Virus record (IMG/VR): IMGVR_UViG_3300005440_000009
Location: 1 to 64,000 of that record
From: a virus
Lineage: Duplodnaviria > Caudoviricetes
DNA length: 64,000 bases
Strand: one strand, 5' to 3'
Below the pieces are notes generated by a model, which saw nothing but the letters and a program-made list of their open reading frames with translations, searched no databases and was not told the DNA's origin. The translations under genes and the position numbers were made by a program. Positions 1-43,670 of the stretch are shown here, one piece after another; the stretch's first letter is position 1; every line of letters begins with the position of its first letter.

Positions 1-323
1 CGCTGGCGAATAACAGCGCGCACGGGCGGCGGAGACTCTTCGGCGAACGGTAGCGCTCCCGAAAACTCCTCGCTGACGAGATTGACGTTTCGTCGCGGTC
101 GCGGAGGAACACGAGTCGGGATCGAAGTCTCGTCGAGACCGACCACGGTCTGGACAAACTCTTCTTCGGTAAAAGTTTGTAGGGTCCGCCGACGGCGGGC
201 CGGAATTACTATTGGGGGCGGCGCCTCTTCTTCTGTCAGAAAGAGGGTTTCGTCGGCCTTCGTCGGCGCCCAGTTGGTGAACGGCCCGAAGGTCGCGAAG
301 CCCGGCCGCTTGCCGGCGGGCAT
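1..323 (-). CDS. hypothetical protein, truncated at window edge
   Basis: ATG at 323 overlaps the upstream TAA (TAATG); frame MPAGKRPGFATFGPF... is open to base 1; repeated EE(E)..P..R segments. Confidence 0.5.
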   Translation of the reverse strand, partial: MPAGKRPGFATFGPFTNWAPTKADETLFLTEEEAPPPIVIPARRRRTLQTFTEEEFVQTVVGLDETSIPTRVPPRPRRNVNLVSEEFSGALPFAEESPPPVRAVIRQ

Positions 324-886
324 TAGTTACACGCGACGGCCGAGTACTGGTGGAGGGTCATCGATCCGGTCGCGACGGTCTGCGTGAAAAACATATCGAC
401 GATGTTAGTCACCGTAGAATCGAAGTTGCCGCCGACCGCGGGCGCCGCGTTCCAGGGGAGGATGGCCGTCAGGGAGCCCTTCGGGGCCGCGGCAGGCGTG
501 CCGAGAATGTCCTCGCAAGTCCACTTGCCCTGACCCATGAAGTTTGCCGCGGTACCGATCGCGCGGCAGGTCATGAGGATCTCCAGATACCAACCCACGG
601 TCGTGTGGGCGGCCACGGTGTCGAGCAAGATCGCGAGCGAGTCGAATACGACGGTGTTTCCCGCGGCGCCCATGCGGATGTCGAAGCGTGCTGTGCCCGG
701 CGTCGTGATGACGCTTGAAATCCTGCCGCTCGCGGTGATCTTGAGCTGGCGGCCAATGGTCCAGTAGTTGGCAGGGAGCGTGAAGCGCGCGGTTGCGGGG
801 ATGCAGGTTGCCGCGGCGGCGGCAGTAAGAGTGGTGCCGTCCGTGGAGGCGACGATCAGCGTCTCGCGCCAAGTCTGTAGGCTCAT
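323..886 (-). CDS. putative beta-rich virion protein
   Basis: 187 aa Thr/Ala-rich, beta-strand pattern (TLPANYWTIGRQLKITASGRIS); in late operon. Confidence 0.55.
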   Translation of the reverse strand: MSLQTWRETLIVASTDGTTLTAAAAATCIPATARFTLPANYWTIGRQLKITASGRISSVITTPGTARFDIRMGAAGNTVVFDSLAILLDTVAAHTTVGWYLEILMTCRAIGTAANFMGQGKWTCEDILGTPAAAPKGSLTAILPWNAAPAVGGNFDSTVTNIVDMFFTQTVATGSMTLHQYSAVACN

Positions 887-892
887 TTCGCT

Positions 893-1372
893 TTACTCGA
901 CTGTGCCGACGGACAACTCGAAGTTCATGGAGGCGGCTCCGGAGGCGTTGAAGATGTCGAGGCTCTGGTTGGCGGCCGCGGGCAACGCGTAGCACTGGTC
1001 GAGAACTAGACCCATCCAGTTTCCGGGGCTGGTCGCGCCGCTGCCGATCGAAAGCATCAGCGTGGGGCCGCCGGTGCCGGAGGTGACCGCGCCGACGGCG
1101 AAGCCGGCCGTGTGGGTCGCGGCTTGGTAGCCAGGATCGTTCGGGGAAGGGGTGATCGCGGTGCCGCCGGACGAGCTCGTCGTGAACCATTTCTCGAGTC
1201 GATAGCTGATGCCCGAGATCGACGTGAGCAGAGCCCCGCGACCGGTCGGGTAAATGGCGTTCACCCAAAGCGTGCGTGTCGCGCCGGGCTTGACAAAGAA
1301 GCAGTCGTTGGCGGTCAGCGGCGTCGCGTTCGAGGTCTGGATCGCGCCCGGGACGTCTGTGTAATAGAGCAT
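893..1372 (-). CDS. putative beta-rich virion protein
   Basis: 159 aa, Gly/Thr/Ser-rich, tightly packed with neighbours. Confidence 0.55.
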   Translation of the reverse strand: MLYYTDVPGAIQTSNATPLTANDCFFVKPGATRTLWVNAIYPTGRGALLTSISGISYRLEKWFTTSSSGGTAITPSPNDPGYQAATHTAGFAVGAVTSGTGGPTLMLSIGSGATSPGNWMGLVLDQCYALPAAANQSLDIFNASGAASMNFELSVGTVE

Positions 1373-1375
1373 TTT

Positions 1376-2006: not shown

Positions 2007-2390
2007 TTAGCAGCGCTCGACTTTGAAGTCCATCACGATTCCGCCCGCAGTCGGCGCCGAGAATGCGACTTGAAATCCGCTCGGGGCCTTGGCCGGGATC
2101 GCGAACGGCTGCAAGGTGCCCCCGAGCATGGTGCCGATCACGATGTAGTTGGTGTCGGGTTGCACACACCCAGCCGGGAACGGCACGAACTGACTCACCT
2201 GTCCGTTGGCGATCGGAACGTGAAGGAGACAGCAGCCGCCCGCCGCCGCGGCCGCGTCATCGCCACCCAGATTGCCGCCACCTAGACCAGCGACCGCTTG
2301 AGCCAAACGCATGAGAGCTCGGCCGAGCGGCGATCCAAGCTGCACTTGGCTGCCCACATTTTTGACGATGTCTTCGATTGCTGTTGCCAT
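2007..2390 (-). CDS. small spike/vertex-type protein with QLxSPxG N-terminal domain
   Basis: N-terminus EDIVKNVGSQVQLGSPLG aligns with ORFs 2702, 4373 and 18635; short beta-rich C-terminus. Confidence 0.55.
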   Translation of the reverse strand: MATAIEDIVKNVGSQVQLGSPLGRALMRLAQAVAGLGGGNLGGDDAAAAAGGCCLLHVPIANGQVSQFVPFPAGCVQPDTNYIVIGTMLGGTLQPFAIPAKAPSGFQVAFSAPTAGGIVMDFKVERC

Positions 2391-2405
2391 GATTTGTCTC
2401 CCTTA

Positions 2406-2705
2406 CTACTTCACCGGCACCGCGACGACCAGCGCGAGAGCGCCGTCCGGATCGTCGTAGGCGAATTTAGGGGTGTCCGAAGGGTCTTCGGGATCTCGCG
2501 GCAACTCGCGGCGCGCGGCGTTCCAGCCGTCATCGGTGTAAGCACGGCACTCGCCGGTCGCGTCGATCAGATGCGTGTGAAGGCTTCCCCTGTAGCCGAG
2601 CTCGGCGGCCGCCGCGTGCAGGATGTCACTTACGTCGTCGCCATCGAAGATGTTCGGGGGGTACGTTTTTCCAACGACTGTGATCGCGTAGGCCATGGGT
2701 TTCAC
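2406..2705 (-). CDS. hypothetical protein
   Basis: 99 aa, ATGA overlap with upstream gene. Confidence 0.55.
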   Translation of the reverse strand: MKPMAYAITVVGKTYPPNIFDGDDVSDILHAAAAELGYRGSLHTHLIDATGECRAYTDDGWNAARRELPRDPEDPSDTPKFAYDDPDGALALVVAVPVK

Positions 2706-4369
2706 CAGTATCCGTACATGTGGATAAAATCCATTTGGTTATTGGTGGCGCCCTTCGAGCTCTGCACGCAGGTCGGACGAAGATTGGTGGTGTTGAGCGG
2801 CAGCGTCGCGGAAATGTCTGCGTCGTGCACGACGGTGTTGGTAGAGCGATTGATCAGCGTCGTGTGGATCTTGGTGTCGTTGGGGAGCGCCCACATTTGC
2901 ACCTCGAACACGCAGGGGCCGGCCGTGTTTGGGTCGCCGGTCACGAGCGAAGCTTTGGTGATGATGGCGGCCGACTTGGTGCTCCCACCGACGTTGTCAG
3001 TGCTGATGACGGTGATGTTGGCGTCACCGGTGTCGGCGCCATAGACGACGCGGTTACCGGTCGCGCTCGGATTTGCCCCGCCTGCGATCACGGCGTTGTT
3101 GATGCCGATGGAAATGATCGAATCGGTTTGGATGACCGCGACCGCGAAGCGGAAGCAAACGAAGAATCCACCCACTCCCGCGACGGCACCGCGGCACATG
3201 CCGGGGTCGGTGAAGTTTTGGCCGACGAGAATGTTGGCCGACGAGGTCGTGGTGTTGTTGCGCGGGCTCGAGGTGCGGAGGTCGGTGTTGGTCGGCGAAA
3301 CGGTCGTCACGCCGGTCAGGGCGTTCGTGGTGAGGCCGAGGCTGTCTTGCAGACCGCCGTTGCTGCGCGGAATCACGTAGCGGAAAGAACGCGACAGGAC
3401 CGCGGTCCCCACTAGGGCTTGGGGGATGCGAGCGAACGAGGCGGTGGAAGCTCCTGCCTGAAGCGCCGCCGACACCTGCACGTCGTCGGCGTTGACGACC
3501 ACGGATCCATCGGCGTTTTGGCCGACGTCAAAGGTCCGATTGGCGGAGAGGTCTCCTCCGCCTGTGAGTCCAGCGCCGGCTGTCAGCGTGCGCGCGGGTT
3601 GCACACTGGTCGCTCCGAGCGCGGCGCCCGACTGGATCGCGGCGGACACCTGCACGTCGTTGGCGTTTACGACTACCGAGCCATCAGCATTTTGGCCGAC
3701 GTTGAAGGTGCGATCGGCGGAGAGATCGCCGCCGCCCGTCAGGCCAGCGCCGGCCGTCAGCGTGCGCGTGTTCGGGACGGAGAAGGCTACGAGAGAGTCG
3801 AGTGCGGCCTTGTCGGCCGCGGACATGAAGCCCGCGACGAGGTTGGTGGCTACGGCGTGGAGGGCGCCGCCAGAAAGGTTTCCGTGGTTTGCGTCGGTGA
3901 TGACGCCCACTTTGATATCGTCGGCTCCAACGATGATCGTGCCGTCAGCGGCGACGATGTTGAAAGTGCGATCGGCGGAGAGGTCGCCGCCGCCGGTCAT
4001 GCCGGCGCCCGCGGTCAGCGTGCGCGTGACCGGAACGTACGGCCCACCCGCCACCAGCGCATCGAGCGCGGCTTTGTCGAGGGCGGACATGAATCCCGCG
4101 ACCAGGGGCGTAGCGAGCGCGTGGAGCGTGCCGCCGGGAAGGGTTCCGTGAGCGTGCACATGATCGGAGCGCGATGCGAAGAATGAACTGCCGCCGGAGC
4201 CGACCACGCCGACCGGCATGGCAGAATTACCGAATGGAGTTGATCCGCCCGCGGCAATGATGCCCGCGTCGGCCAGGCGAGAGACCAACTGCATCCATAC
4301 GCCGACTGGCGAGGACAGTTGCACCTGTCCCGTCGTGGCTTTGAGAACGTCTTCGACTAATCCGGACAT
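2702..4369 (-). CDS. fibre/spike protein with shaft repeats
   Basis: 555 aa; QLxSPxG N-terminus; 3x RTLTAGAG(L/M)TGGGDLSA(D/N)RTF; 2x VAGFMSA(L/A)DKAALD; beta-rich head. Confidence 0.7.
   Translation of the reverse strand: MSGLVEDVLKATTGQVQLSSPVGVWMQLVSRLADAGIIAAGGSTPFGNSAMPVGVVGSGGSSFFASRSDHVHAHGTLPGGTLHALATPLVAGFMSALDKAALDALVAGGPYVPVTRTLTAGAGMTGGGDLSADRTFNIVAADGTIIVGADDIKVGVITDANHGNLSGGALHAVATNLVAGFMSAADKAALDSLVAFSVPNTRTLTAGAGLTGGGDLSADRTFNVGQNADGSVVVNANDVQVSAAIQSGAALGATSVQPARTLTAGAGLTGGGDLSANRTFDVGQNADGSVVVNADDVQVSAALQAGASTASFARIPQALVGTAVLSRSFRYVIPRSNGGLQDSLGLTTNALTGVTTVSPTNTDLRTSSPRNNTTTSSANILVGQNFTDPGMCRGAVAGVGGFFVCFRFAVAVIQTDSIISIGINNAVIAGGANPSATGNRVVYGADTGDANITVISTDNVGGSTKSAAIITKASLVTGDPNTAGPCVFEVQMWALPNDTKIHTTLINRSTNTVVHDADISATLPLNTTNLRPTCVQSSKGATNNQMDFIHMYGYW
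3526..4024 (-). repeat. three shaft-repeat units (approximate limits)
   Basis: RTLTAGAG units start at 4024, 3766 and 3592; a fourth starts at 5746 in the next gene. Confidence 0.85.
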
Positions 4370-4372
4370 GGT

Positions 4373-6031
4373 TTATGCGAACGCTACAATCATCGCGCCG
4401 TTGCCAGTGCCGACGGTCACGCCGTCGTAGCCGTTCATGTACGGGATCTGCGCCCAGGTGCGCGCAGTTCCGCCGACGTTAGCATCGCTCGCTCCGGTGA
4501 CCGTCGGTTTGGTCGTATACATCGTCTTGCCGCCAGACCGCACACGCATGCCGACCCCAGTCGAACCCGTTCCCCAGATCAGATCGTTGCCACTAAAGAG
4601 CGCAGCGGCTCGTACGTTACCGTCTTCGATGAGGAGACCATCGGCGCCGGCATCGAACACCGCCATCGTTGCGACACGCAGCACGCCGTTGTAGCGAACG
4701 CGGATACCGTCATTGCCGCTCTGGCTAAATAGCGTGTCGTAGTCGACGAAGAGGGTTGCCCCCGATTGCACCGACGGCCGCCCGCGCACGAGGCACGCGA
4801 AGAACGAGGGCGAGCTCGGCGCCGCCGCAATCACGACGCCCGTGTCGATGAAGCACCCGCATAGATTTGCGTTGAAGGGCGGATGCATGCGGCAGCCGTA
4901 GGCGACGGGCGCATTCGTAACCGTGCCGATCGGCAGCATCGAGATCGGGATGTCGCTCTGGGTCAGGTAAACATTTTGGAGGACAATCTGCGTGCCGTTC
5001 ACGCTGGCGGCGCCGCCGTACTGCGCACTGATGTTATTGAGCGTGAGGTAGCCGATCGTGGTCAGGCTCTCGACTACGAACGTGTTTCCGGCGGCGACGT
5101 TGACGGGCGTCGGCGTGAAGGGCAGCGGGTTTGCCGCGAACGACATCGTCGTCCATGGGCTCGTGCGGTACACGCCGCCGCCGAAGTCGCGATCCAACCA
5201 CGCAATGGCTCCAGTGCTTGCGCCGCTCGTTGCGCGGATGCGCTGACCGGTGCGGCCGGCTCCGAGGCCAGCCTCGGTGATCGCGCTCGCGGTTTGGGTC
5301 GCACGGTTCAGGTTCGTGACCGCGGAGAAGCCTCCGCCTGGTGACGTGTAGGTCGTCGTCGCGACGCCGGTGATGCGGAGCACGCCCGCTGACCCGAGGA
5401 TGAAGTTGAAAATGCACGGGTCGGTCGCGGGGACGTTATTGAGATAGGTGACGGTGGTGTCGGCTACGATGTTCCAGATCGTTCCGACGCGACGCTGACG
5501 TTCAGCGTCGTGCTGGATTGCAGTGCCCGCAGTGAGCCCGTCGTTCGCATCACTTCCTGCGACCGGATCGATAAACCAAACCGTCTGGGCTCGCGAAGCT
5601 ACATTGCCTACGCCGAGTGCCGGGTTTATTTGCAGGTCGTTCGCGTTGACAAGGATCGTTCCGTCAGCATTTGCGACAACATCGAATGTTCGGTTGGCGG
5701 AGAGATCGCCACCGCCGGTTAGACCGGCGCCGGCTGTGAGCGTGCGCGTGGGCTGCACAGCGGTCGCGCCAGCCGCGGAACCCGCTTGGATGGTCGGGTT
5801 CACTCGAATGTTGTCGCCGTTGACGATGATCGAGTTGTCGGGGTTTTGGCCGACGGCTAGTTGCGTTCCATCGGGCACGAGGCCCGGACCGGCGAGCGCG
5901 TTTACCTCGCCTGCGGCGAACGAGATAATTTGATCAGCGGCTTGCGAGACGGCAAGGATCCAATGCCCATGGCGACTCGCAAGCTGGAGCTCGCTTGCGA
6001 GGGACTTCGCTAGGTCGAGAATCTTTCCCAT
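4373..6031 (-). CDS. spike protein with probable beta-helix (depolymerase-like) domain
   Basis: 552 aa; QLxS anchor, one shaft repeat, WFIDPVAGSDANDG motif typical of beta-helix domain starts, C-terminal G/V/I coil pattern. Confidence 0.6.
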   Translation of the reverse strand: MGKILDLAKSLASELQLASRHGHWILAVSQAADQIISFAAGEVNALAGPGLVPDGTQLAVGQNPDNSIIVNGDNIRVNPTIQAGSAAGATAVQPTRTLTAGAGLTGGGDLSANRTFDVVANADGTILVNANDLQINPALGVGNVASRAQTVWFIDPVAGSDANDGLTAGTAIQHDAERQRRVGTIWNIVADTTVTYLNNVPATDPCIFNFILGSAGVLRITGVATTTYTSPGGGFSAVTNLNRATQTASAITEAGLGAGRTGQRIRATSGASTGAIAWLDRDFGGGVYRTSPWTTMSFAANPLPFTPTPVNVAAGNTFVVESLTTIGYLTLNNISAQYGGAASVNGTQIVLQNVYLTQSDIPISMLPIGTVTNAPVAYGCRMHPPFNANLCGCFIDTGVVIAAAPSSPSFFACLVRGRPSVQSGATLFVDYDTLFSQSGNDGIRVRYNGVLRVATMAVFDAGADGLLIEDGNVRAAALFSGNDLIWGTGSTGVGMRVRSGGKTMYTTKPTVTGASDANVGGTARTWAQIPYMNGYDGVTVGTGNGAMIVAFA

Positions 6032-22830: not shown

Positions 22831-23045
22831 TTTTGGCACCTCACCCACTGCTTGAGCCGGTCGTGAAACTCGGCGTCGATTTCCTTCTTGGCTTCGCAGC
22901 GGTCGTCTTGGCCTTGGCATTTCTCGGCGAGGCTCGCGTGATACCACGCGCCGATCGCGGCCATGTCTTCGACCGAGCACGCTTCGTTGTGGACCGAAGC
23001 GCACGCGGAGGCGGCCATCGCTAGGAGCCCGATGAGGGCATGCGC
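22827..23045 (-). CDS. probable small lipoprotein (spanin-like); start unresolved
   Basis: ALIGLLAMAASA-C lipobox and paired Cys; no convincing in-frame start just before the signal. Confidence 0.4.
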   Translation of the reverse strand, partial: AHALIGLLAMAASACASVHNEACSVEDMAAIGAWYHASLAEKCQGQDDRCEAKKEIDAEFHDRLKQWVRCQK

Positions 23046-26374: not shown

Positions 26375-26386
26375 TTCGCGAATCCT

Positions 26387-26761: not shown

Positions 26762-26768
26762 GGGCTAA

Positions 26769-29965: not shown

Positions 29966-30679
29966 TCAGGGGCAGCCCGGCCCCAAATCCCTCGGAGCGA
30001 AAACGCCCTCTGCCTGGAGCTCGTCGATGATCTGCGTGAAGTCGCAGCCGTTGTAGAGACCGGTCGGAAGCCGCGTCCCGTGAAACGTGATGATCGCCTC
30101 GGTCGGCACTTCGTCGGCTTGGAGCGTGCGGAGGTTGGTGAAGATCGCGTCGAAGGTCGCGGAGCACTTCAAGACCAGGCCGGCGGGACAGACGCACTCG
30201 AAGACCGCTTCGATGTTTTCGAGGGGGGTCGGCTCGGTGTTGATGAGATAGTTGCAGAACGAGTGGATGATGAGCGAGTTCAGGTCGATGTTGGGGTTCA
30301 GGCGATTGAAGTAATCGGACTGAGCCTTCCAGATCGATCCTGCGGCGAAGTTCGGGCGACGCACCGTATAGGTGACGCGCCGGATCCAAATGTCGCTTTC
30401 GACCGTGCCGAGCATCTGACCCAGCACGGGCTTGTCCGCCGTGGTCGCATCCCAACGCGCTTTCACGCTGAGCATCACCCAGCCGTTGGTCTCGGTCACC
30501 AGCCAGCCGTCGCCAGCCATGCGGTAGCCGAGACCCTTTTTCGCGGCCTGCAAGAGCGTGTGCGCCAGCCGTGGCTCTTGGAGGGCGATCCCTCCGAGCC
30601 ATTGCGGCGCCGCCGCTCGGCGCGCCCGGGCGAGCGCGGCCGAAACCTCGTCGCCCGGAGCTGTGTTGGGTGCGTTCAC
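29966..30679 (-). CDS. candidate single jelly-roll capsid protein
   Basis: 237 aa, beta-strand pattern (IWIRRVTYTV, AIITFHG), directly after the MCP candidate. Confidence 0.4.
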   Translation of the reverse strand: MNAPNTAPGDEVSAALARARRAAAPQWLGGIALQEPRLAHTLLQAAKKGLGYRMAGDGWLVTETNGWVMLSVKARWDATTADKPVLGQMLGTVESDIWIRRVTYTVRRPNFAAGSIWKAQSDYFNRLNPNIDLNSLIIHSFCNYLINTEPTPLENIEAVFECVCPAGLVLKCSATFDAIFTNLRTLQADEVPTEAIITFHGTRLPTGLYNGCDFTQIIDELQAEGVFAPRDLGPGCP

Positions 30680-33841: not shown

Positions 33842-33871
33842 ATTATGGCCAGCGAAATCCGTGCTCGTCAA
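33842..33871 (-). promoter_or_regulatory. sigma70-like promoter for the core/capsid operon
   Basis: TTGACG (33871-33866), 18 nt, CATAAT (33847-33842), 10 nt, ATG at 33831. Confidence 0.65.
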
Positions 33872-34430
33872 CAATGCAGCCGTGCGGAAGCGGCAAACGC
33901 CACCCCAAAGTGCGCTTGCTATAACGCACCTCAACGGGCGGATCGTATTCGTGCTCGAACGGTTTGTCGAAGCCCGGACGCCGATAGCGAATGAGACGCA
34001 CGCGCGCTAAGCGCGCCCACGGTCCCTCGGGAATTTCCACCGATCCGTAAGTGAGAGGAAGTGGGCGATCGTTCTGGTCGATGAAGTACTTTTCTGCGTC
34101 ATCGAGCACGTCAGCAGGTGCGTTTTTCGCACCTCCTCCGCGAGCTCGAACAATATACAAATCGCACCGGTCCAAAAGTGCGCCGGTCGTGTCGTGCACG
34201 AGCACATACCCCCGCGGGAAGGTCACGTCGGCCGCCGGCATGCGCGGTTCCCAGAAGACTTCGCGCTCTCCGTTTGGTCCGGTCGCGCGCACGATGCGGC
34301 GCGCGCCGGAGTTTCGCACGCGTTCGACGGACACGAATTGGATGTTCGTGCCGCGCACGATCATGTGGTGCGTGTAACACGCACCGGTCGTGCAATCTTC
34401 GGCTTCGACGATGCGGCCGGAGTCCGTCAT
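33843..34430 (-). CDS. hypothetical protein
   Basis: 195 aa; TAATG coupling. Confidence 0.6.
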   Translation of the reverse strand: MTDSGRIVEAEDCTTGACYTHHMIVRGTNIQFVSVERVRNSGARRIVRATGPNGEREVFWEPRMPAADVTFPRGYVLVHDTTGALLDRCDLYIVRARGGGAKNAPADVLDDAEKYFIDQNDRPLPLTYGSVEIPEGPWARLARVRLIRYRRPGFDKPFEHEYDPPVEVRYSKRTLGWRLPLPHGCIVDEHGFRWP

Positions 34431-35296
34431 TAGGCCGCTCGCGCCAATTGACGACTCGGCGGAAGCGCGCGCGAGCTCGAGCGTGCACCCGCTGGCGGCA
34501 CCAAGCGCACGAGTGCGTAAAGCACACCGAGACCGAGCGCGACCAGCGCGACGGTCTTAATCGTGTTCGTGATGTCGGTCGTGGGCTGACTGCCGGCTTT
34601 GATTTGCTCGACCTTCTGCGCGCGCACGGCAGCGGCGCCGGTGTAGATCGATTGGTTTAGCTTGGCGGCTTGGTCGGGCGTGCATTTTCCGGTCGTCACG
34701 CACTCGTAGGATTTCTCCGCGATCGTGCGCATCGTCTTTTGCTCGGCAACGTCAGTGATGTTGTTGACTGCTTTCTCGACCGCCCAGTACGCCGGGAGCG
34801 CGAGCACCGTGACGCCCAAGGTGGTAGCCCACACGATCGCGGGCACTCCAACTTGCCCTTGCACGTGCGTTTGCTCACCCGCGGGATTCACGATGATCGG
34901 CACGTCGCCATTGAGCGCCAAGCGCACGACGTCCGACGAGAGCCCCTCGATTTCGAATTGATTCTTTTCCGTGTTCCAGGCGACTTTGCGCTTTCCGGCG
35001 ATCGCGTCGTTTAGGGCGTCGGTGATGATCTTCACCATCGCCATCGCGTCGACTGCGTTCTGGTCGAGATCCGAGGACCATGCCGACGCGCTCGACATGC
35101 CCGGGGCGGCTCCACCCTCGGGGCCAGCGCCATCGACCAAGAACGGAAGGCCGAGGTTTTGGCGGACCGTCTTTAGCCCGGTGTAGGCGGCGACGGCTCG
35201 CGTCCACGACGCGCTCAGATTGTCGCGGAGCGCCGTCAGGTACGCTTCCCAGGCTTTTTCGTCGGCGGGTTGGCCCAGCCATCGCAGCTTTTTCAT
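34430..35296 (-). CDS. Trp-motif membrane protein, two hydrophobic helices
   Basis: MKKLRWLGQ (ATG at 35296); IVWATTLGVTVLALPAYW and VALVALGLGVLYALV. Confidence 0.65.
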   Translation of the reverse strand: MKKLRWLGQPADEKAWEAYLTALRDNLSASWTRAVAAYTGLKTVRQNLGLPFLVDGAGPEGGAAPGMSSASAWSSDLDQNAVDAMAMVKIITDALNDAIAGKRKVAWNTEKNQFEIEGLSSDVVRLALNGDVPIIVNPAGEQTHVQGQVGVPAIVWATTLGVTVLALPAYWAVEKAVNNITDVAEQKTMRTIAEKSYECVTTGKCTPDQAAKLNQSIYTGAAAVRAQKVEQIKAGSQPTTDITNTIKTVALVALGLGVLYALVRLVPPAGARSSSRALPPSRQLARAA

Positions 35297-35454
35297 TTGA
35301 TGAGTCTCGCGCGGTAGAGGTTGATTACCAGGGAAGTCGCTGAAATCAGCAGGCCCGCGATCGCGAACCACTCAATTCTCGAGAGCTTGTGGCCGTCGCC
35401 CGGGATCTCTTCCGGGGCGGCGGAAACCTGACCGGACCAGCGCAAAATGGCCAT
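35293..35454 (-). CDS. 53-aa Trp-motif membrane microprotein (below track cutoff)
   Basis: hand-translated MAILRWSGQVSAAPEEIPGDGHKLSRIEWFAIAGLLISATSLVINLYRARLIK; ATGA overlap with the next gene. Confidence 0.75.
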   Translation of the reverse strand: MAILRWSGQVSAAPEEIPGDGHKLSRIEWFAIAGLLISATSLVINLYRARLIK

Positions 35455-35464
35455 CGCTCGCCCT

Positions 35465-36457
35465 TTAGAGTAGCGCCCAAATTACGAGCGCGACAATGCC
35501 GGCGCCGATCGCCAAGGGCGCGATGCTCGAGCCGCCGCCCCCGCCACCGCTCCCGGCCGCGGCGATGTTCTTGAAGTCGATCTGCGATTTGAGCTTTTCG
35601 ATGAGCGGCTCCATCGCTTTGCTCGGGAGCTCCGTCAAGCACTGCGGATCTTCACCGTGCATGTTGCTCGGCGTCTTCGGGTCGAAGACGTTGAAGAATC
35701 CCGCCGGACAGTCGCCCTTACTCTGAAACCAGCTCGAGGCGTTCTCCATGCGCCCGACCGCGAACCAATCGATCGGCTCGCCGGGCTTGGCGATGGGGCC
35801 GAAGTTCCCGTTGAAGTAGGTCAGCCAAACGTAGTCCTTACACGTCAGCTTTTCGTTGACGATGCCGAGCTTCTTGGCGACGGCGCACTCGTCGAGCGCC
35901 GTCTTGGTGAGCTCGAACTTTTCATACGCAAGCGCGGCCGCGTAGCGCTCGGCGCTCGGCGCAAACTTCGAGAACACCGGCGCCGGTGGCAAGCCCGCTT
36001 CAGTCAGCGCCACGTCGGAAGCGCCTTGGCTGATGGCCAGATCGCGGAGCGTCAAATAGGACTTGACGGCGAGGATGCCCTTGGCCGCGCGCTTGGCTCG
36101 CGGCGCCGTGAAGTCGTTCCAGGTTTCCGAAACCAAGTCCTCCATGGTCGATCCCTTGGCCACAGGGATCGATTTTCCGATGAAGCCGCCGATGATGCCG
36201 CCCAAGATCGCGCAGCCGCCCGCGACTGGAGCAGTCACTACGAAGGCCGAGCACGCCGCAGCGCCACCAATTGCGCCGCCCACCTCGCCGTAGGCTTTCA
36301 GATCCGCCGAGCTCGTGCCGCCCTTCCGCTCGATGATCTCTCTCGTGAGCGGATTGGTTGCCTTGTCCATTCCGGAATACGCACCGAGGCCGACGGGCCG
36401 CCTCGAGCTCGGCGAAAGCACGAGCGGGACGGACGCATTCCAGATGAGGGCGGACAT
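35465..36457 (-). CDS. Trp-motif membrane protein with glycine zipper and C-terminal TM
   Basis: MSALIW..PVGLGA; GGAIGGAAAC..AILGGIIGGFIG; APLAIGAGIVALVIWALL. Confidence 0.65.
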   Translation of the reverse strand: MSALIWNASVPLVLSPSSRRPVGLGAYSGMDKATNPLTREIIERKGGTSSADLKAYGEVGGAIGGAAACSAFVVTAPVAGGCAILGGIIGGFIGKSIPVAKGSTMEDLVSETWNDFTAPRAKRAAKGILAVKSYLTLRDLAISQGASDVALTEAGLPPAPVFSKFAPSAERYAAALAYEKFELTKTALDECAVAKKLGIVNEKLTCKDYVWLTYFNGNFGPIAKPGEPIDWFAVGRMENASSWFQSKGDCPAGFFNVFDPKTPSNMHGEDPQCLTELPSKAMEPLIEKLKSQIDFKNIAAAGSGGGGGGSSIAPLAIGAGIVALVIWALL

Positions 36458-36476: not shown

Positions 36477-37223
36477 CTAGCCGGGACAGCGAGCAAGCGT
36501 GAGCGCTCTTTCGAGCGTCCGATCACCCGGCTTCCACACGACGCGAGCTCGGAGGCCGCGCAAGCCGTCAACGCCAATGAAAACGCCCTTGTCGACGAAG
36601 TTTAGCCGGTCGGGATCGAAGGACCTTCCGCCGCCCGCGCCGATGCACACTTCGTCGTCGCAAATCACCTTCACGTTTGGGACGGAGAGGATCCGCTCGT
36701 AGGTGAAGGGGACGCATTTGCCGAGCTGGTAGTCGGTCGACGGATCGCCGTAGTGCCAGCGGCCGTCCAAGTGCGCGGCGCACAGCACGTGCTCGATGTT
36801 GTGCTCGTCGTCGTAAGCATGGCCCACCACCAAGGTGTGGATCCCGACGGACATCCAAGCGGCGCCGAGGAGCGTCGCCACGCCGTCGCAATCGTCGCCA
36901 CGAATGCAAACCTTGTTGGGGTTTGTCTTCGGATCGCACGCGAGCAAGGTCGCCGCCGGCATGTATTCGGCCCCGATTGGGTCGGGCACCCACAATTTCT
37001 TCTGCACGGCGGACAGAAGAATGCGCGCGCGATCGTTCGGGGTCTTGGCGCTCGAGAGGCCGCGTTCGCGGGCGACGTCCAGCATTTCGATCGCCCAGGT
37101 GCGCACGCCCGGGTCGATCGCGCCCTTCGAGACGCGCTTGGCCACTTCGTCGAGCGAGCTATTGACGCCCTGCTTGCCGAACGGGTGCTCACGTTGCGTA
37201 ACGGCGGTCCAAGGGGCGGGCAT
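36477..37223 (-). CDS. transglutaminase-like cysteine protease domain protein
   Basis: GDDCDGVATLLGA (Cys), EHVLCAA (His), WHYGDPS (Asp). Confidence 0.8.
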   Translation of the reverse strand: MPAPWTAVTQREHPFGKQGVNSSLDEVAKRVSKGAIDPGVRTWAIEMLDVARERGLSSAKTPNDRARILLSAVQKKLWVPDPIGAEYMPAATLLACDPKTNPNKVCIRGDDCDGVATLLGAAWMSVGIHTLVVGHAYDDEHNIEHVLCAAHLDGRWHYGDPSTDYQLGKCVPFTYERILSVPNVKVICDDEVCIGAGGGRSFDPDRLNFVDKGVFIGVDGLRGLRARVVWKPGDRTLERALTLARCPG

Positions 37224-37555: not shown

Positions 37556-37806
37556 CAGCCGGTTTTGCCGCTCGCCACGCTCGAGGCCGCCTCGGCGAGC
37601 TCCCGCGTGACGCCGTCCACAAACGCCATACGCCCCGGATCTTCCTCACCGGGCACCTCGGCGTTAATCGCTCGCACGGCTTCGACGAGCTGCGCGGCGT
37701 GCTCGGGGCGCATCATGATCGCGACTTGCATCTGCACGAAGCGGCCGGCGGAGGCCGGCTCGCAGGCGACGCGGATGGTGACGTCCTTGGTCTGGTAGGT
37801 GTTCAA
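37555..37806 (-). CDS. hypothetical protein
   Basis: TTG at 37806 overlapping the upstream TGA. Confidence 0.45.
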   Translation of the reverse strand: MNTYQTKDVTIRVACEPASAGRFVQMQVAIMMRPEHAAQLVEAVRAINAEVPGEEDPGRMAFVDGVTRELAEAASSVASGKTG

Positions 37807-38243
37807 TGGAGGTTCCTTTCGGGGTGGGCGAAGTCTATGTGTGCGGCGCACGCGGCCGAGCACACCGCTTCGTGGTCTTCGTTGACGTACCAGTCGTGCT
37901 GGAAGGACACCCACTTCTGATCTCCGAGCACGACGACTTCGGATTTCTCTCCGCAACAAGCGCACGTCACCGGCATCAGGACGATGCCCTTTTCGCGCGC
38001 CCGTTTGGTCCAGAAGTTTAGGAGGGGTTGGGCGAGGAGACCGTGCAGCGGCCAGATCATCAATTGCACCAACAAACCGATCATCGACCACAACAGCACC
38101 CAGGCGCGCGCGGTCGGCCAGCGGCGCATCTGATTTTTCACCACGCTCTTTACGCCGCGGCCCACGTCGGGGTTGACGAGAAAGAGGAGCGCCTGGCCCG
38201 CAATCCCGCCCAGCCACAACCAAAGAAGCACCGACACGATCAC
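37803..38243 (-). CDS. membrane protein with C-terminal Cys cluster
   Basis: two hydrophobic stretches; CACC..CSAAC. Confidence 0.55.
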   Translation of the reverse strand: MIVSVLLWLWLGGIAGQALLFLVNPDVGRGVKSVVKNQMRRWPTARAWVLLWSMIGLLVQLMIWPLHGLLAQPLLNFWTKRAREKGIVLMPVTCACCGEKSEVVVLGDQKWVSFQHDWYVNEDHEAVCSAACAAHIDFAHPERNLH

Positions 38244-40144
38244 GCTCCGTCAGAAGGCGTAACCGGTGCGATGAAATCGGGCGGCGGCGGAAGCGGCTCG
38301 GGCTTCTCGGGCTCGGGTGCGGGAGCCGGCGGCGGAGGCGGCGCGACGGGCGCGCTCACCATGACGTGGCCAGCAGGCGGCGCAACGGGAGCCGCGTATT
38401 GCGTCGCCGGAACGAACGGAGGCGCGGGCGGAGGAGGGGGCGCCACGTACGGCGGTGGCGGCGGAGGCTGCGCCACGAACGGTGCCGGCGGCGGCGGCGT
38501 CACGAGCGGCGCCGCGCCCGCCATGCGCGTCGCTTCCGCTTTGATGACTTCGGATCGCGCGATGCGCTCTTGAGCCGTGGCCACGCGCTCGAGCACTTCG
38601 GCGCTCTTGATTTGCGCTTCGGCTTTCAGATTCGCGGCTTCCGCTTCGCGTGTGATCAGATCCATCTGATCTTTCTTCCGCTTGTCCATCATCTCGACGA
38701 ATTCCTTGACGGCGGCTTTGCCGAGGTCTTGGAACTTGTCGAAGTTGGATGCGACGAACGGACCGAAGCCCGTGACCATTTCGCCGTCGATCGCGGTCAC
38801 GCGAAACGGCCCGACGTCGCGGACCTTGAGCGGGAAGTCATCGTCGGCGGCGGGATTTTCCCGGTGTTCCGGGGTTTCACTCTTTTCAGGGGCGAGCGCC
38901 TCGCGGGTCTTGCCCATCAGGTTCGAGAGCTCGAGGACCGATTGCACCGATTGGCGCGCGGCTTCCATCGGCGTCAGTTGCACCGGAGCCGGCGCCGGTT
39001 TTTCTACCGGCGCAGCGGCGGGCTGCTGGAGCGGCGACCACGCGGAGCCGTTCCAGACGATCCATTGGCCGTTCCAGAAGATCGGCTGACCGGGGGCGGG
39101 GCCGGCTTGCTGTTGCGCTTGCGGTTGCTCGCGGCGGGCGGCGGAGAGCTCGGCGACGAGGCGGTCGTTCATGGTGATGAGGGCGGCGATCGCGGCGTCG
39201 TTGGTCGGCGCGGCAGCGGGCGGCGGCGGGGGCGGCGGCTGGTGCTGCGGGTGCTGGTATTGCGGACCGGCTACGCCGTTGGGCGGAGGCGGATACTGCG
39301 GACCAGGCGCGCCTTGGGGATACGCTGGCGGCGGAGCGTGCTGGGGCGGGTAGCCCGGAGGCGGATACGGCGCGGGAGCGGATTGAGGAGGAACGGCCCC
39401 CGGGGGATATCGCGGATCGTACGCTTGCTGCGGCGGGTAGCCAGCGGGCGGGTAACCCGCCGGCGGATAGCCGCCTTGGGTCGGGTAACCTTGCTGCGGC
39501 GGATAGCCGGGAGGAGCGCCGTAGCCGCCTTGCGGCGGGTAGCCTTGTTGCGGCGGATAGCCGGGCGGAGGGTAGCCGTTTCCTCGCTGACTCATTTCTC
39601 GGTCCTCTTCCTGCCAACGCGGATCGTCGAGCATGTAGATCATGCCCGTTGCCCAACATGGCTCCGTCGAATCTCCGATGGTCCACTTGCAAGTGCATTT
39701 CTTGCCCTGCGTGTATTCCGCTACAAAGCGCTGGAGGTCCCGCCAGTCGCGCAGCGATTCCACCGGCACCACGGGCAAGTGCGCGCGCGTCGGCTCCGTC
39801 ATCATGATCGTGACGGACGAATTTGGATGAAGCATCACCGCTTGCTGGTAGCGGAGCGGAAAGTCGGCGTTGAGCTTGACGTTGCGATCGCCGCGATGCT
39901 TCTGCGCGACCTGGCCGCGATACTGCTGAGAGATGACGGCTGCGGTCCTGTCGAGCGGAATGTTGAGCGCGTCTTCGGGCGAGACTTCGACTTCGTCTCC
40001 GATCGGCATGCCGTGAGCGTCAACCGGGAAGCCGTTGACGACCGCCTTTGCCGAGTCTTGGAGATCCGGCGGCGGCGCGGGCGGGTGACGCACGCGCGCC
40101 TCGCCGTTGGTTCCGTTTTCGAGACGTTTTCGACGACTTGCCAT
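38240..40144 (-). CDS. large Pro/Gly/Tyr/Gln-rich low-complexity protein
   Basis: 634 aa; tandem GYPP(Q/A/P) units, charged helical segment, poly-Pro tail. Confidence 0.7.
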   Translation of the reverse strand: MASRRKRLENGTNGEARVRHPPAPPPDLQDSAKAVVNGFPVDAHGMPIGDEVEVSPEDALNIPLDRTAAVISQQYRGQVAQKHRGDRNVKLNADFPLRYQQAVMLHPNSSVTIMMTEPTRAHLPVVPVESLRDWRDLQRFVAEYTQGKKCTCKWTIGDSTEPCWATGMIYMLDDPRWQEEDREMSQRGNGYPPPGYPPQQGYPPQGGYGAPPGYPPQQGYPTQGGYPPAGYPPAGYPPQQAYDPRYPPGAVPPQSAPAPYPPPGYPPQHAPPPAYPQGAPGPQYPPPPNGVAGPQYQHPQHQPPPPPPPAAAPTNDAAIAALITMNDRLVAELSAARREQPQAQQQAGPAPGQPIFWNGQWIVWNGSAWSPLQQPAAAPVEKPAPAPVQLTPMEAARQSVQSVLELSNLMGKTREALAPEKSETPEHRENPAADDDFPLKVRDVGPFRVTAIDGEMVTGFGPFVASNFDKFQDLGKAAVKEFVEMMDKRKKDQMDLITREAEAANLKAEAQIKSAEVLERVATAQERIARSEVIKAEATRMAGAAPLVTPPPPAPFVAQPPPPPPYVAPPPPPAPPFVPATQYAAPVAPPAGHVMVSAPVAPPPPPAPAPEPEKPEPLPPPPDFIAPVTPSDGA

Positions 40145-41295: not shown

Positions 41296-41319
41296 GTTCC
41301 GTCTTTCGCTTTGGGTGGG

Positions 41320-41952
41320 CTAAGCGCGAGGCGCTTCGGTGGATCCGTTGTTTGGTTTGGCGACGACGGGCTCTTCGTCGTCGTCATCGTCGTCATCGTC
41401 GGCGGTCTCTTCGGCCTGCACGACTTCGATGAGCTCGACGAGCTCCTTGGCGAGAATGCGATCGACCTCGCAGAATTGCTTCAAGCGGGGGAAGCGCTCG
41501 TCGACCCAAGAGTTGATCTGCTCGTCGAGATCCGGATCGGGGCCGGGCGGGATCAAATCTTGATTGAGCGTATTCATCATTTTCCCGAACATATCGATGG
41601 CGTCGTTGAAGCCTTGCGTGCGGCAAAGGCGCGCCACGTTGTCGGCGGGGATCTCGTGCACTTGCGTCTCTTCGGGACACGCGGGGCAGCCCGCGCGGTT
41701 GAGGGGCTGGCACTCGGGGCACATGCCGGGGTTTTTGATGCCGTGCATGCCGGCGGCGTCGCGCATCAGCACGTAGTAGCGCTCGGGGCGAATGGTCTTG
41801 GTGAGCCCATGGAAACTTTCGACGATTTCCGACTCGTAGCCGATGAGCCAGATGATGCCGCGGATGTTTTCCTTGCCCGTGTTGGGCCATTCTTCGTTGC
41901 AGGTGTAAACCGTGCCGTCCTTGCAAATCAGGCGGAAGTACTGTCGTTGCAT
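41320..41952 (-). CDS. hypothetical protein with Cys cluster and acidic tail
   Basis: CPEC..CPAC; DDDDDDDE. Confidence 0.55.
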   Translation of the reverse strand: MQRQYFRLICKDGTVYTCNEEWPNTGKENIRGIIWLIGYESEIVESFHGLTKTIRPERYYVLMRDAAGMHGIKNPGMCPECQPLNRAGCPACPEETQVHEIPADNVARLCRTQGFNDAIDMFGKMMNTLNQDLIPPGPDPDLDEQINSWVDERFPRLKQFCEVDRILAKELVELIEVVQAEETADDDDDDDDEEPVVAKPNNGSTEAPRA

Positions 41953-42161
41953 CGATTACCGGCTCGCTTTCCCAGTGCACAAAATAGACACAAGCTCAGC
42001 GGGAGCGCCATAGGCCACAAATAAATCACGGCCACCCTCATGCCCCCGTCGGGTGGTGTTGCTTCCGCTATTTGCAGATGCGCCGACGAGCTACACGAGA
42101 ATGGCCGGGACGAGAATCCGCGGTGAGCAGTCCTCGAAGGCGAGACTATGCACTCTCACGG

Positions 42162-43670
42162 TCAGGCGCAAGTGTTTGAAGGGATATCGAAAAGCGGCAA
42201 TCCGGGTGGGCCGCGCGCTAACCCGGGACTTTCTTTGGGTCTTTCGTGGGGGCGGAGGGAATCGATCGCGCCGCAAGCTTGGCACTCGCAGTGCTGTTTT
42301 ACCCAGAATTTTCGGCTAGCTGTGATGAGTCGCCCCCGGTCGAGCCCGCGGTAAACGGCTGAAAAAAGCGATGGGTGCATCAGCACCTTGCACTCGGGAT
42401 CCTCGAAGTCTTTCGTGAGGTACTTCACAAGCTCCATCGCGAGATCGATGCCGTCGACCTCGGCGCCTTTGCCTCGGGAAGTGACCCGCTTGTAGTCGAC
42501 CCTCGGGTAAGGAATTTTTTTCGAACAGTTTTTTAGCCAGCGAAGGGCGGTCTCGTCGTTGGCTTTTTGGAGCTCGATGCGGAGATCGGCTTTGTCTTTC
42601 CATGCGTGCTCAGGCCAGAGCTCAAGCGGAAATCCGGATTTGATGAGCGCGCGCCCCCAGAGAGCGCGGATCACCTGAACGCGTGCGAACGGAGAGAGGA
42701 GCCAGCAATGAATGTGCACGTGGCCCGCTTCGTCGCGTCCGGTCGTCGCCTCGAGCACACGCACGAATGAGATCAGATCGAACCCTGGGTGCTTCCAATA
42801 TTTTCCGCGCCAGCGGTTGCGGAGCGAATTCATGAAACGCCGCCAGGCGTTTCTTACAAGCCAAGCTTGTGCTTCGGGACCGTAGAGTTTTCTAAACTCG
42901 CCATCTTCGTCTTCGATCGTGATGAATTGCTCGAGCGCTATATGCGGACAGGTGAGCGTCAAGAACCTCTCGACCATCGGATCGTGAGGTACCTGACCCG
43001 GACCCAACCTGCGATAGCGGACCCGTTGTAGTGCTTCGAGACGTGAATGCAAAAACCTTTTCCGGTTTTTCTTGATGCGGATCTGCCGGCAGTCCCAGCA
43101 GAGCAGAGTTGCTCCGCACATTTTTTTCAGGACGAGCGGATTGCCGTGCTTGTCCTGCGTGACTGTCTTGCAGTGCACACACACCAAGACTCCGCGCTCT
43201 TCGGCGCCACAGGCGCGCACGCGCATGAAGCGCTCGATTTGTCCCTTGCTTCGATCACGGTGCCACTTGCTGTCGCCTCGCCGGTCGGCTTCCTCAAAGA
43301 CGCGATCGCGGAAACTGTTTGTTGGCTCGTGCTCGTCGCGGAGGAGCCGATGCCGTCCTCGGCTGGTTTGTTTCTTCTGCGTGTCCCAGCGACGTAGGAT
43401 CTTTTTTACCTCGGGGGTCGATCCTGGGAGCGCTCGGAACTTCGCCAAAGGACCGAAGCCGATTTCGTCGTTGGACGCTTGGCGGATTTCGTCACGCAAG
43501 AAAAGCGCTTCATCGCTGCGCTCGACGCCGCGCGCGGAAATGCGGTTGGCGCGCCTGATTCGGTGCTCTCTCGTTTCTCGCTCGACAGTGAGGAGCCACG
43601 GGGCTGGCTTGATTCGTAGGCTCTTTGCGCGCGGCTCGGGATTGGTGAGCGCAAAGACAGCTTCGGGCAT
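42162..43670 (-). CDS. rep: HUH rolling-circle replication initiator
   Basis: motif I FLTLT, motif II GHVHIH, motif III VKYLTK; upstream CVHC..CWDC zinc finger. Confidence 0.85.
   Translation of the reverse strand: MPEAVFALTNPEPRAKSLRIKPAPWLLTVERETREHRIRRANRISARGVERSDEALFLRDEIRQASNDEIGFGPLAKFRALPGSTPEVKKILRRWDTQKKQTSRGRHRLLRDEHEPTNSFRDRVFEEADRRGDSKWHRDRSKGQIERFMRVRACGAEERGVLVCVHCKTVTQDKHGNPLVLKKMCGATLLCWDCRQIRIKKNRKRFLHSRLEALQRVRYRRLGPGQVPHDPMVERFLTLTCPHIALEQFITIEDEDGEFRKLYGPEAQAWLVRNAWRRFMNSLRNRWRGKYWKHPGFDLISFVRVLEATTGRDEAGHVHIHCWLLSPFARVQVIRALWGRALIKSGFPLELWPEHAWKDKADLRIELQKANDETALRWLKNCSKKIPYPRVDYKRVTSRGKGAEVDGIDLAMELVKYLTKDFEDPECKVLMHPSLFSAVYRGLDRGRLITASRKFWVKQHCECQACGAIDSLRPHERPKESPGLARGPPGLPLFDIPSNTCA

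Follow-up and report, generated by a model that had tools for sequence, protein, structure and literature searches.

The DNA considered here raises the question of what kind of particle, if any, is specified by a long block of late genes, which an earlier note had assigned to a tailless virus containing a membrane. The window, i.e. the whole stretch of 64,000 nucleotides that was analysed, corresponds to positions 1 to 64,000 of the record IMGVR_UViG_3300005440_000009, the source contig being 77,617 bp long. A sister record of 73,644 bp, about 95% identical to the contig and collinear with it, bears a 123-bp terminal repeat, and in this record the two ends of the contig adjoin each other. Collinearity with a terminally repeated record means that the genome is circular and complete, so that the size of "at least 64 kb" proposed earlier is replaced by a circle of about 74-78 kb (CheckV completeness 100), and the window covers most of a complete circular soil virus genome. 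The late block occupies the minus strand from 43,670 down to 1 and from there extends past the circular junction as far as contig position 72,802 (Table 1); the repeat-rich gene at the left edge of the window runs across the junction into contig positions 75740-77617, and the assembly break falls there. A tyrosine integrase and a NUDIX gene are also present. The genome far exceeds those of PRD1-, PM2- and P23-77-type viruses, in line with the previous supposition of a much larger lineage, and the trio of capsid candidates described below recurs in a large uncultured group with contigs of up to 119 kb and a complete relative of 93.4 kb having identical ends of 3,726 bp.

Table 1. Features of the late region (coordinates of the window; aa, amino acids)
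Coordinates	Strand	Feature	Remarks
1..323	-	Repeat-rich gene, 5' part; EEFSG.LPFAEES repeats, poly-Pro	Membrane-anchored at the C-terminus; basic tail
323..1372	-	Pair of small beta-rich products (187 and 159 aa)	High GC3
2007..6031	-	Spike/fibre genes (127, 555 and 552 aa) plus a 99-aa ORF	Common N-terminal anchor segment
7063..16884	.	Glycan module	GDP-mannose 4,6-dehydratase (+), FkbM methyltransferase (+), C-methyltransferase, three glycosyltransferase genes
18635..19255	-	Fifth spike (206 aa)	Same N-terminal anchor, Gly linker
19494..21289	-	Three membrane proteins	Two with N-terminal Trp tag
21663..24000	-	Cell-wall enzymes (267 aa and 230-aa paralogue)	Small ORFs between
24000..29094	-	Five C-terminally anchored proteins, tagged and rich in Cys/Pro	Starts near 25664, 26374, about 27300, 27724, 29061
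29061..29951	-	Capsid candidate (296 aa)	Most widely conserved gene of the lineage
29966..30679	-	Single jelly-roll protein (237 aa)	Core at residues 64-205 (model)
30703..31887	-	Jelly-roll capsid candidate (394 aa)	GC3 0.88, highest in genome
31990..33831	-	Membrane protein (613 aa)	Polybasic N-domain, membrane helices, Cys cluster, weak LysM-like C-domain
33843..36457	-	Soluble protein (195 aa), conserved; two tagged multi-pass or tail-anchored membrane proteins (313 and 330 aa)	
36477..37223	-	Transglutaminase-like Cys/His/Asp enzyme (248 aa)	Homologous to SSIP-1 gp34
37803..40144	-	Membrane protein (146 aa); 634-aa protein with Pro/Gln-rich and coiled-coil region	Both conserved in relatives
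42162..43670	-	502-aa protein with HUH-type motifs in pC194-Rep order (FLTLT, HVHIH, KYLTK)	

The earlier note recognised no HK97 capsid, portal, large terminase, sheath or tube in the late block, and the same was found for the complete genome. PHROGs and Pfam profiles applied to every ORF from about 200 aa upwards gave no match to capsid, portal, terminase, sheath or tube families, and six-frame searches, in which the entire genome and three relatives were compared with Phage_capsid, Phage_portal, Terminase_6N, FtsK_SpoIIIE and Pox_A32, were all blank, while control genomes gave matches in the searches for the tailed-phage families. Of the two packaging systems between which it was suggested to discriminate, i.e. 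an A32/FtsK-like ATPase or a terminase with portal, neither was found in the contig, no frame of its 77.6 kb containing a credible Walker A motif, and the P-loop proteins of the complete 93.4-kb relative are replication helicases only. A tailed phage so divergent that no profile recognises its HK97 capsid, portal and terminase could account for fibre repeats matching PHROG "tail protein" families and for the SLT and DarA_C domains that relatives carry and that are common in tailed phages. We hold it to be highly improbable given that to our knowledge every large terminase has a Walker A motif, that the profiles blank here did respond to control genomes, and that after subtraction of fibres, glycosyltransferases, membrane proteins and the Rep-like protein only two soluble unknowns of more than 300 aa are left, one being a jelly roll.

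Three beta-rich products had been proposed as capsid candidates, and for the two of them that were modelled (394 and 237 aa) structure prediction combined with Foldseek returned jelly rolls. With the model of the 394-aa protein (pLDDT 75.5, pTM 0.74) the capsid protein of archaeal virus SPV1 comes first among PDB entries (E 2.4e-4) and PRD1 P3 next, and the viral structure library yields capsid proteins as matches; with the 237-aa model (pLDDT 86, pTM 0.80) SPV1 is again on top (E 1.9e-3, probability 0.92). VIA-align gave for the larger protein PRD1 P3 (Z 6.6, 160 aligned residues), SPV1 (Z 6.5, 151/178), PR772 (Z 6.2) and poxvirus D13 (Z 5.0-6.2), and for the smaller one EhV-201 MCP (Z 6.8), PBCV-1 (6.2), SPV1 (6.1-6.5), ASFV p72 (5.7) and HHIV-2 (5.3), and, since no value reaches 8 and the viral jelly rolls are equalled by non-viral ones (PHM, DBH), these scores establish the fold and prove neither homology nor a capsid role. 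Single jelly-roll targets align over residues 36-334 of the 394-aa model as well as PRD1 P3 or D13 do, which suggests one roll with insertions rather than an established double jelly roll. Sequence comparison linked the trio to no solved capsid protein or PDB chain, SPV1 and VP16/VP17 included. The order of the three genes is constant in every relative read, the 296-aa family comprises 416 representative clusters, and in one relative the 237- and 296-aa families are fused into a single protein of 489 aa. The two adjacent conserved jelly-roll genes (394 and 237 aa) are probably highly expressed.

An A32/FtsK-type ATPase is a defining trait of PRD1-, Bam35-, PM2- and P23-77-type viruses. Its absence means that this is not a typical PRD1-, PM2- or P23-77-type virus, and without a packaging motor the genome would not be pumped into a preformed shell. 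By analogy with SPV1, the same absence points to assembly around condensed DNA; as negative evidence it also leaves room for a host ATPase or a very deviant one, either of which may serve. The product encoded directly upstream of the trio, in a position always preceding the shell genes, is the 613-aa protein, of which the N-terminal 236 aa contain 33% Arg+Lys (net charge +64); this polybasic domain is kept in seven of eight relatives with net charges from +23 to +90. Its previous description as a LysM membrane protein stands as far as the membrane is concerned, the LysM part corresponding to one weak NCBIfam match (2e-4). A Kyte-Doolittle scan reproduced the count of more than 10 membrane proteins in the structural block, most of them C-terminally anchored. 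More than ten anchored proteins of the block have an N-terminal Trp/Leu-Gly tag in common, tagged tail-anchored proteins occur in relatives too, and no signal peptides were found in the tagged proteins. Two of the five tagged proteins encoded between the cell-wall enzymes and the trio end in strongly basic tails (net +13 each), and in many cases an ectodomain-like Cys-rich part precedes a Pro/Ser/Thr stalk and the anchor. The 634-aa protein is a candidate scaffold or matrix protein.

We infer that the membrane may lie inside the shell, the sequence fitting either placement: since basic tails, the polybasic domain and shell proteins devoid of signals should face the cytoplasm, an outer envelope fits as well as an inner membrane. 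Accordingly, an enveloped or pleomorphic virus has to be weighed, plasmavirus- or pleolipovirus-like rather than PRD1-like, whose outer envelope with tail-anchored proteins would be gained when the genome, condensed by protamine and possibly enclosed in an inner jelly-roll shell, is wrapped at the cytoplasmic membrane. The positive-inside rule, under which polybasic domain and basic C-tails belong on the cytoplasmic (DNA) side, is consistent with it, as are the likeness of Cys-rich parts, stalks and anchor to envelope glycoproteins, the large glycosylation module and the missing motor. Nevertheless, such a virus appears unlikely, because the bulk of tagged proteins lacking signal peptides should stay cytoplasmic, the spikes have no membrane anchor, the two strongly conserved jelly rolls best match shell proteins of internal-membrane viruses, and SSIP-1, the sole cultured virus sharing a structural protein, has an internal membrane.

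The spikes postulated earlier were recovered as five fibre-like proteins having in common an N-terminal segment of about 40 aa (window positions 2007, 2702, 4373 and 18635; contig position 74283), of which the 555-aa product of ORF 2702 matches PHROG tail-fibre repeats. An ORF of 625 aa (17463-19340) overlapping the 206-aa spike was set aside as a spurious-looking Arg-rich frame. The segment encoding the 187- and 159-aa beta-rich proteins is the sole late region not aligning with the 95%-identical sister genome, and these are possibly variable vertex or receptor-binding parts. One of the three glycosyltransferase genes of the glycan module specifies a multidomain product of 1045 aa. The enzymes named before, like the LysM protein and the Rep, are less well supported than had been stated. 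For the muramidase, the 267-aa protein matches PG_binding_1 (4e-10), but its glucosaminidase-like N-domain is weak (Glucosaminidase 0.0099), and the membrane-anchored protein is its paralogue (ORF 23308), which is tagged and C-terminally anchored; the transglutaminase-like assignment rests on a Transglut_core match of a homologue (8e-4) and on the Cys/His/Asp core common with SSIP-1 gp34. For the presumed rolling-circle Rep of pC194/pUB110 type the three motifs (II being HxHxH, III having Tyr in KYxxK) do occur in order, but searches of Pfam, NCBIfam and PDB with the 502-aa protein were blank, and PHROGs gave one weak match, to a family of unknown function. It is absent from the complete 93-kb relative, which uses PolA, helicases and primase, and the gene is not conserved across the lineage.

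Rep-like gene of plasmid type, integrase and NUDIX gene would suit a large integrative plasmid-like element having no virion at all and spreading by vesicles or cell contact, in which jelly rolls serve as surface lectins or adhesins and membrane proteins remodel the envelope; lack of a packaging ATPase and of a recognisable capsid family, and the Z-scores shared with non-viral jelly rolls, agree with this possibility. We give it little credence, as neither conjugation ATPases nor a relaxase profile nor a partition ATPase was found in the genome, which does encode a homologue of a proven SSIP-1 virion protein, besides five fibre-like proteins united by a common anchor and bearing phage tail-fibre repeats. 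Moreover, lysis/entry enzymes and operon order are kept across genomes with quite different replication modules, as is typical of a virion module, and IMG/VR and CheckV class these genomes as complete viral ones.

Among known systems, SPV1 possesses a membrane and a nucleoprotein core of DNA wound with basic protein, proteins bridging membrane and shell, single jelly-roll shell proteins, circular dsDNA and glycosyltransferase and methyltransferase genes, a packaging ATPase not being among its assigned functions (PMC8459092). Circular dsDNA, both kinds of genes, a polybasic protein and the lack of a packaging ATPase recur here, as read from the genes, and with both models Foldseek ranks the SPV1 capsid first among PDB entries, its Z of 6.1-6.5 being below the level at which kinship with VP4/VP10 could be told from a common fold. 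In contrast, SPV1 infects a hyperthermophilic archaeon, and its 20-kb genome is without sequence similarity to this one, which has the basic domain as part of a membrane protein and encodes in addition an integrase, cell-wall enzymes and five spikes; the modelled likeness shows a common fold, not common descent. The only cultured sequence match is gp34, a virion protein of SSIP-1, homologous to the 248-aa protein (pairwise E 9e-12, 24% identity over 234 aa) with the Cys/His/Asp core kept. SSIP-1 infects bacteria, has no tail, and combines a membrane inside the particle with circular dsDNA and with MCPs of two types, both presumed single jelly rolls; a series of tail-anchored membrane proteins occurs in it too. 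It differs in genome size (43.8 kb), in its halophilic Bacteroidota-type host and in structural protein gp40, which has a Walker A motif and no counterpart here. Profiles of the trio found no match among SSIP-1 ORFs (hmmsearch E > 0.2, hhalign probability at most 17%). Adjacent genes for two different jelly-roll proteins are a trait of Helvetiavirae (P23-77, IN93, HHIV-2, SH1), likewise membrane-containing and tailless, with weak structural matches (HHIV-2 Z 5.0-6.0, HCIV-1 5.4, P23-77 VP17 5.1, VP16 4.8), but those have a conserved packaging ATPase beside the MCP genes and genomes of 17-31 kb, against no ATPase, a third conserved gene in the shell block and 74-93 kb here. Vertex spikes and virion-associated lytic enzymes are found in Tectiviridae and Corticoviridae, PM2 also having circular DNA and RCR Rep; compared with PRD1 and PM2, the FtsK/A32 ATPase is missing and the genome is 5-7 times larger.

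The sequence is present in several rhizosphere and soil runs. Binning assigned it to a Gemmatimonadaceae MAG, in which the virus contig is the free circle, and another MAG of Gemmatimonadota contains a distant relative; the search for a CRISPR spacer or an integration site linking virus to host found none. Binning makes a soil Gemmatimonadota bacterium the likely host, and the two bins lead away from the Myxococcota hinted at before.

Taken together, gene absences, two jelly rolls and the set of membrane proteins support the tailless, membrane-containing reading by computation, and it is rather probable that we deal with a bacterial virus, temperate and with 74-78 kb of circular dsDNA, belonging to a large uncultured soil lineage and forming tailless particles with a jelly-roll shell and a lipid membrane, at about twice the genome size of the largest phage of such a build in culture, these particles, their lipid and proteins being predicted throughout from the genome. 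In such a particle the polybasic domain of the 613-aa protein and other anchored basic tails would condense DNA on one face of the membrane, which would close round it, while the 394-, 237- and 296-aa proteins would form an icosahedral lattice, a build as in SPV1. N-terminal Trp...Leu-Gly tags may dock membrane proteins to the shell or may be leaders removed by the transglutaminase-like enzyme. In poxviruses a membrane protein holds D13 at the membrane through its own N-terminus and is later cut by a cysteine protease, which offers a possible analogy for tag and enzyme. The vertices would bear five spikes with one common anchor, the two cell-wall enzymes would serve entry or exit, products of the glycan genes may decorate the particle, and the tyrosine integrase would lead to lysogeny.

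More tentatively, as a plausible proposal rather than a probable one, the lineage may constitute a new group of bacterial viruses, of high rank and without detectable sequence kinship to any classified virus, in which an icosahedral jelly-roll shell, assembled with no motor, and a membrane enclose a circular genome of 74-119 kb condensed by a membrane-anchored protamine-like protein. If true, it would be a bacterial counterpart of archaeal SPV1 with a genome four to five times as large, and a dozen membrane proteins would be linked to the shell through a system of tags.

The virus record, of which the window covers bases 1-64,000, comprises 77,617 bp; its G+C content is 63% and it carries no tRNA genes. 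When mapped on a collinear sister record of 73,644 bp (~95% identical, with a 123-bp terminal repeat), the two ends of the contig, as we call the whole record, adjoin each other, so that the genome is circular and essentially complete, its CheckV completeness being 100. A DTR at the contig ends was rejected, the apparent end match being a repeated coding motif: the assembly break lies inside a repeat-rich gene spanning the circular junction (EEFSG.LPFAEES repeats plus a poly-Pro run), which accounts for the 90% match of the first 136 bases with contig positions 77,342-77,478. Nearly all genes of the late block are read from the minus strand, while outside it small early genes, two HNH endonucleases, a DUF5131 protein, RadC, a NUDIX protein and a tyrosine integrase are found. 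Scanning of every ORF of ~200 aa or more against PHROGs and Pfam gave late-block matches limited to fibres (see table), glycan genes (three glycosyltransferases and a GDP-mannose 4,6-dehydratase), methyltransferases (a C-methyltransferase and an FkbM methyltransferase) and a PG_binding_1 domain. Five fibre-like proteins have one N-terminal segment in common.

Positions of the features discussed (window coordinates unless a contig or the locus of a relative is named)
Feature	Position	Strand	Observation
Late block	43,670 down to 1, over the junction to contig 72,802	mostly -	~48 kb
Rep-like gene	42162-43670	-	
Transglutaminase-like protein	36477-37223	-	248 aa
Polybasic membrane protein	31990-33831	-	613 aa
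Shell candidate	30703-31887	-	394 aa
Shell candidate	29966-30679	-	237 aa
Shell candidate	29061-29951	-	296 aa
Fibre gene	2702-4369		fibre repeats (PHROGs/Pfam)
Fibre gene	contig 74283		collagen-like fibre head (PHROGs/Pfam)
Variable segment	1-2003		sole late-block part not aligning with the 95%-identical sister; encodes two short beta-rich proteins and the beginning of the repeat gene; possibly an exchangeable cassette for host range
223-aa ORF	8147-8818	+	no Pfam match at E ≤ 0.01
625-aa ORF	17463-19340	-	Arg-rich; looks like a spurious frame
Spike gene	18635-19255	-	seems a real gene within 17463-19340
Small ORF	17880-18314	+	perhaps a real gene within 17463-19340
Methyltransferase-like ORF	45598-47414	-	C-terminal cytosine-5 DNA methyltransferase motifs (weak dcm match); overlapped by a 365-aa HNH endonuclease gene, which may truncate or interrupt it
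Pro/Gln-rich, poly-Pro runs	38240-40144	-	long coding run
Pro/Gln-rich, poly-Pro runs	contig 76496-76575		long coding run
Fusion gene P0227	L038:1628-3097		489 aa, distant relative
Lytic genes of relatives	L026:15373-17259; L028:8204-9130		SLT lytic transglycosylase (one with DarA_C) and GDSL lipase domains in structural blocks, in the place of the glucosaminidase-like pair of the window's genome
TnpB/Cas12f-like gene	L032:8355-10121		weak TNB-domain match; end of a distant relative's contig

Six-frame searches of the genome and three relatives for Phage_capsid, Phage_portal, Terminase_6N, FtsK_SpoIIIE and Pox_A32 gave no match, control genomes having given matches, and no credible Walker A motif was seen in any frame of the contig. 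With fibres, glycosyltransferases, membrane proteins and the Rep-like protein excluded, only two soluble proteins of unknown function exceed 300 aa, so that a terminase and a portal cannot both fit. Neither the late block nor any of the three adjacent shell candidates (394, 237 and 296 aa) matched the phage collection in megablast and tblastn comparisons. Thus the description of the late genes in the earlier note, with many membrane proteins and no recognisable tailed-phage genes, was confirmed by PHROGs, Pfam, six-frame searches and hydropathy, and the HK97 capsid, portal and large terminase genes that would speak against it were found nowhere on the contig. Its comparison with viruses of PRD1, PM2 and P23-77 type, which have a packaging ATPase, is corrected in that the virus is not a typical one of these, all searches for such an enzyme being blank. 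A conjugative element was set aside, as the genome encodes no ATPase of any kind.

The jelly-roll nature of the shell candidates, expected from the earlier note, was borne out by structure prediction and Foldseek for two of the three. For the 394-aa protein, 21 homologues were collected from 5.8 billion sequences, and the AlphaFold2 model built on this alignment is mainly beta (pLDDT 75.5, pTM 0.74). Foldseek placed first the capsid protein of SPV1, the archaeal Sulfolobus polyhedral virus 1 of Portogloboviridae (E 2.4e-4), followed by those of PRD1 (P3), PR772, poxvirus (D13), PBCV-1, iridovirus and STIV, and a viral structure library returned CRESS-virus and tectivirus capsids. By VIA-align the model scored Z 6.6 with PRD1 P3 (160 aligned, rmsd 5.2), 6.5 with SPV1 (151/178), 6.2 with PR772 and 5.0-6.2 with D13; an unbiased search gave SPV1 6.1, HHIV-2 6.0, HCIV-1 5.4 and P23-77 VP17 5.1 together with non-viral jelly rolls at 6.2-6.7. 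Single-roll targets align over residues 36-334, a span that points to one roll bearing large insertions in the predicted structure and not to a double roll. With at least 81 family members, the 237-aa protein gave a better model (pLDDT 86, pTM 0.80), presenting a single eight-stranded roll at residues 64-205, again with SPV1 on top in Foldseek (E 1.9e-3, probability 0.92) and with Z 5.3-6.8 for capsid proteins of EhV-201, PBCV-1, SPV1, ASFV (p72), faustovirus and HHIV-2. The models thus support both proteins as jelly rolls of viral-capsid kind, a term that, all Z-scores being below 8, denotes a fold and not homology to a particular family. When the three families were compared with PDB as profiles, no solved structure was matched by sequence; in ESM Atlas the 394-aa protein showed nothing beyond a below-threshold likeness in features to jelly-roll capsids of RNA viruses (0.78) and the 296-aa protein had no match. 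The idea that the three are divergent paralogues is unsupported, since hhalign detected no relation between any of the families.

A hydropathy scan revealed more than ten membrane proteins, most with a C-terminal anchor. Nine proteins with membrane segments start with M-x(1-5)-[LIVMRK]-x-W, followed in most by a Leu-Gly junction, and two relatives bear a clearer tag, MxVxWV...WLG...LG, also on tail-anchored proteins. The product of the gene directly upstream of the shell candidates has, ahead of its first membrane helix, an N-domain with 26-41% Arg+Lys and a net charge of +23 to +90 in 7 of 8 relatives (236 aa and +64 in the window's genome), and basic tails of +8 to +13 end three other anchored proteins. 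Since no packaging motor was found, we infer that these basic parts would condense the genome against the membrane, which would then enclose it. According to the main rival reading the membrane ends up outside the shell and not inside; by the positive-inside rule the basic parts should face the cytoplasm, as should the shell proteins, which carry no signal peptide, so that the sequence fits either arrangement. The core of the earlier interpretation, a tailless, jelly-roll, membrane-rich and unusually large virus, is supported. Its muramidase, LysM, transglutaminase and Rep assignments stand at the level of weak matches or motifs.

Two cultured viruses, SSIP-1 and SPV1, serve for comparison. 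SSIP-1 is a tailless phage with an internal membrane, T=49, ~100 nm in size, with a 44-kb genome and two MCP types. Its virion protein gp34 matches the transglutaminase-like protein (24% identity over 234 aa, pairwise E 9e-12), the Cys, His and Asp positions being conserved, this being the sole protein with a match to SSIP-1; a homologue in a Gemmatimonadota MAG matches Transglut_core. Profiles of the shell candidates found no match among SSIP-1 ORFs, and SSIP-1 gp46 and gp47 gave no match with the 237 and 296 families (hmmsearch E > 0.2; hhalign probability below 1%), gp47 having no other homologue for building a profile. SSIP-1 possesses a Walker A structural protein, gp40, whose counterpart is absent from the window's genome. 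SPV1 is the closest in build to the predicted particle: it combines circular DNA, single jelly-roll shell proteins, a membrane and a nucleoprotein core, and no ATPase is among its assigned functions (PMC8459092).

The order of polybasic membrane protein, ~400-aa, ~230-aa and ~290-aa proteins is the same in every relative read, contigs of 63-119 kb included. The lineage is large, as the 296-aa family embraces 416 representative clusters (E ≤ 1e-3; 1.84 billion representatives). In the fusion protein P0227 the first half belongs to the 237 family (hhalign probability 99.4%) and the second to the 296 family, and its gene adjoins that of a 375-aa member of the 394 family; this naturally occurring fusion speaks for joint action of the two proteins. 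One relative, recorded as "linear, 57% complete", has identical first and last 3,726 bp in its 97,101 bp (loci L013-L017) and is therefore a complete genome of ~93.4 kb. It has the structural block in common with the window's genome, and terminase, portal and packaging ATPase were likewise not found in it, but its replication genes are PolA, UvrD-type and other helicases, a primase-helicase and ThyX. The Rep-like gene, a candidate RCR Rep by its motifs, is missing there and hence not conserved. Since the structural block is kept while replication genes differ, the virion module forms the constant core and the replication module can be swapped, a pattern also known from other virus groups.

The virus was present in several rhizosphere and soil sequencing runs, no RNA data set being among the runs listed. 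A 99%-identical copy is a free 73.6-kb contig binned in a Gemmatimonadaceae MAG, and HMM scans of 401 Gemmatimonadota genomes located the three shell genes in two places only, this MAG and one 54.6-kb contig of a second MAG, also wholly viral in appearance. This is a modest hint at a Gemmatimonadota host; the myxobacterial host suggested earlier gained no support. In the same 401 genomes neither a CRISPR spacer nor a provirus was found, and DNA matches amounted to nothing but Pro-rich low-complexity stretches and chance 25-26-mers. The Pro/Gln-rich and poly-Pro runs of the virus give dozens of spurious matches to high-GC bacterial genomes, which are mistakable for host links.

Tailless membrane-containing phages are represented by few isolates, with genome sizes of 10-44 kb in the accounts that quote them, and literature searches returned no description of the present lineage. 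A widespread soil lineage with complete genomes of 74-93 kb and contigs of up to 119 kb would roughly double this size ceiling. These genomes are devoid of any marker used by phage-finding pipelines; virome surveys of soil probably count too few of them or assign them wrongly. The natural joining of a single jelly-roll protein (237 family) to its neighbour from the shell block (296 family) is relevant to an old proposal, in which double jelly-roll capsid proteins stem from the fusion of two single ones. Motorless assembly, if true, would be a first among bacterial dsDNA viruses this large and would offer a bacterial test case for the formation of SPV1-like nucleoprotein cores.
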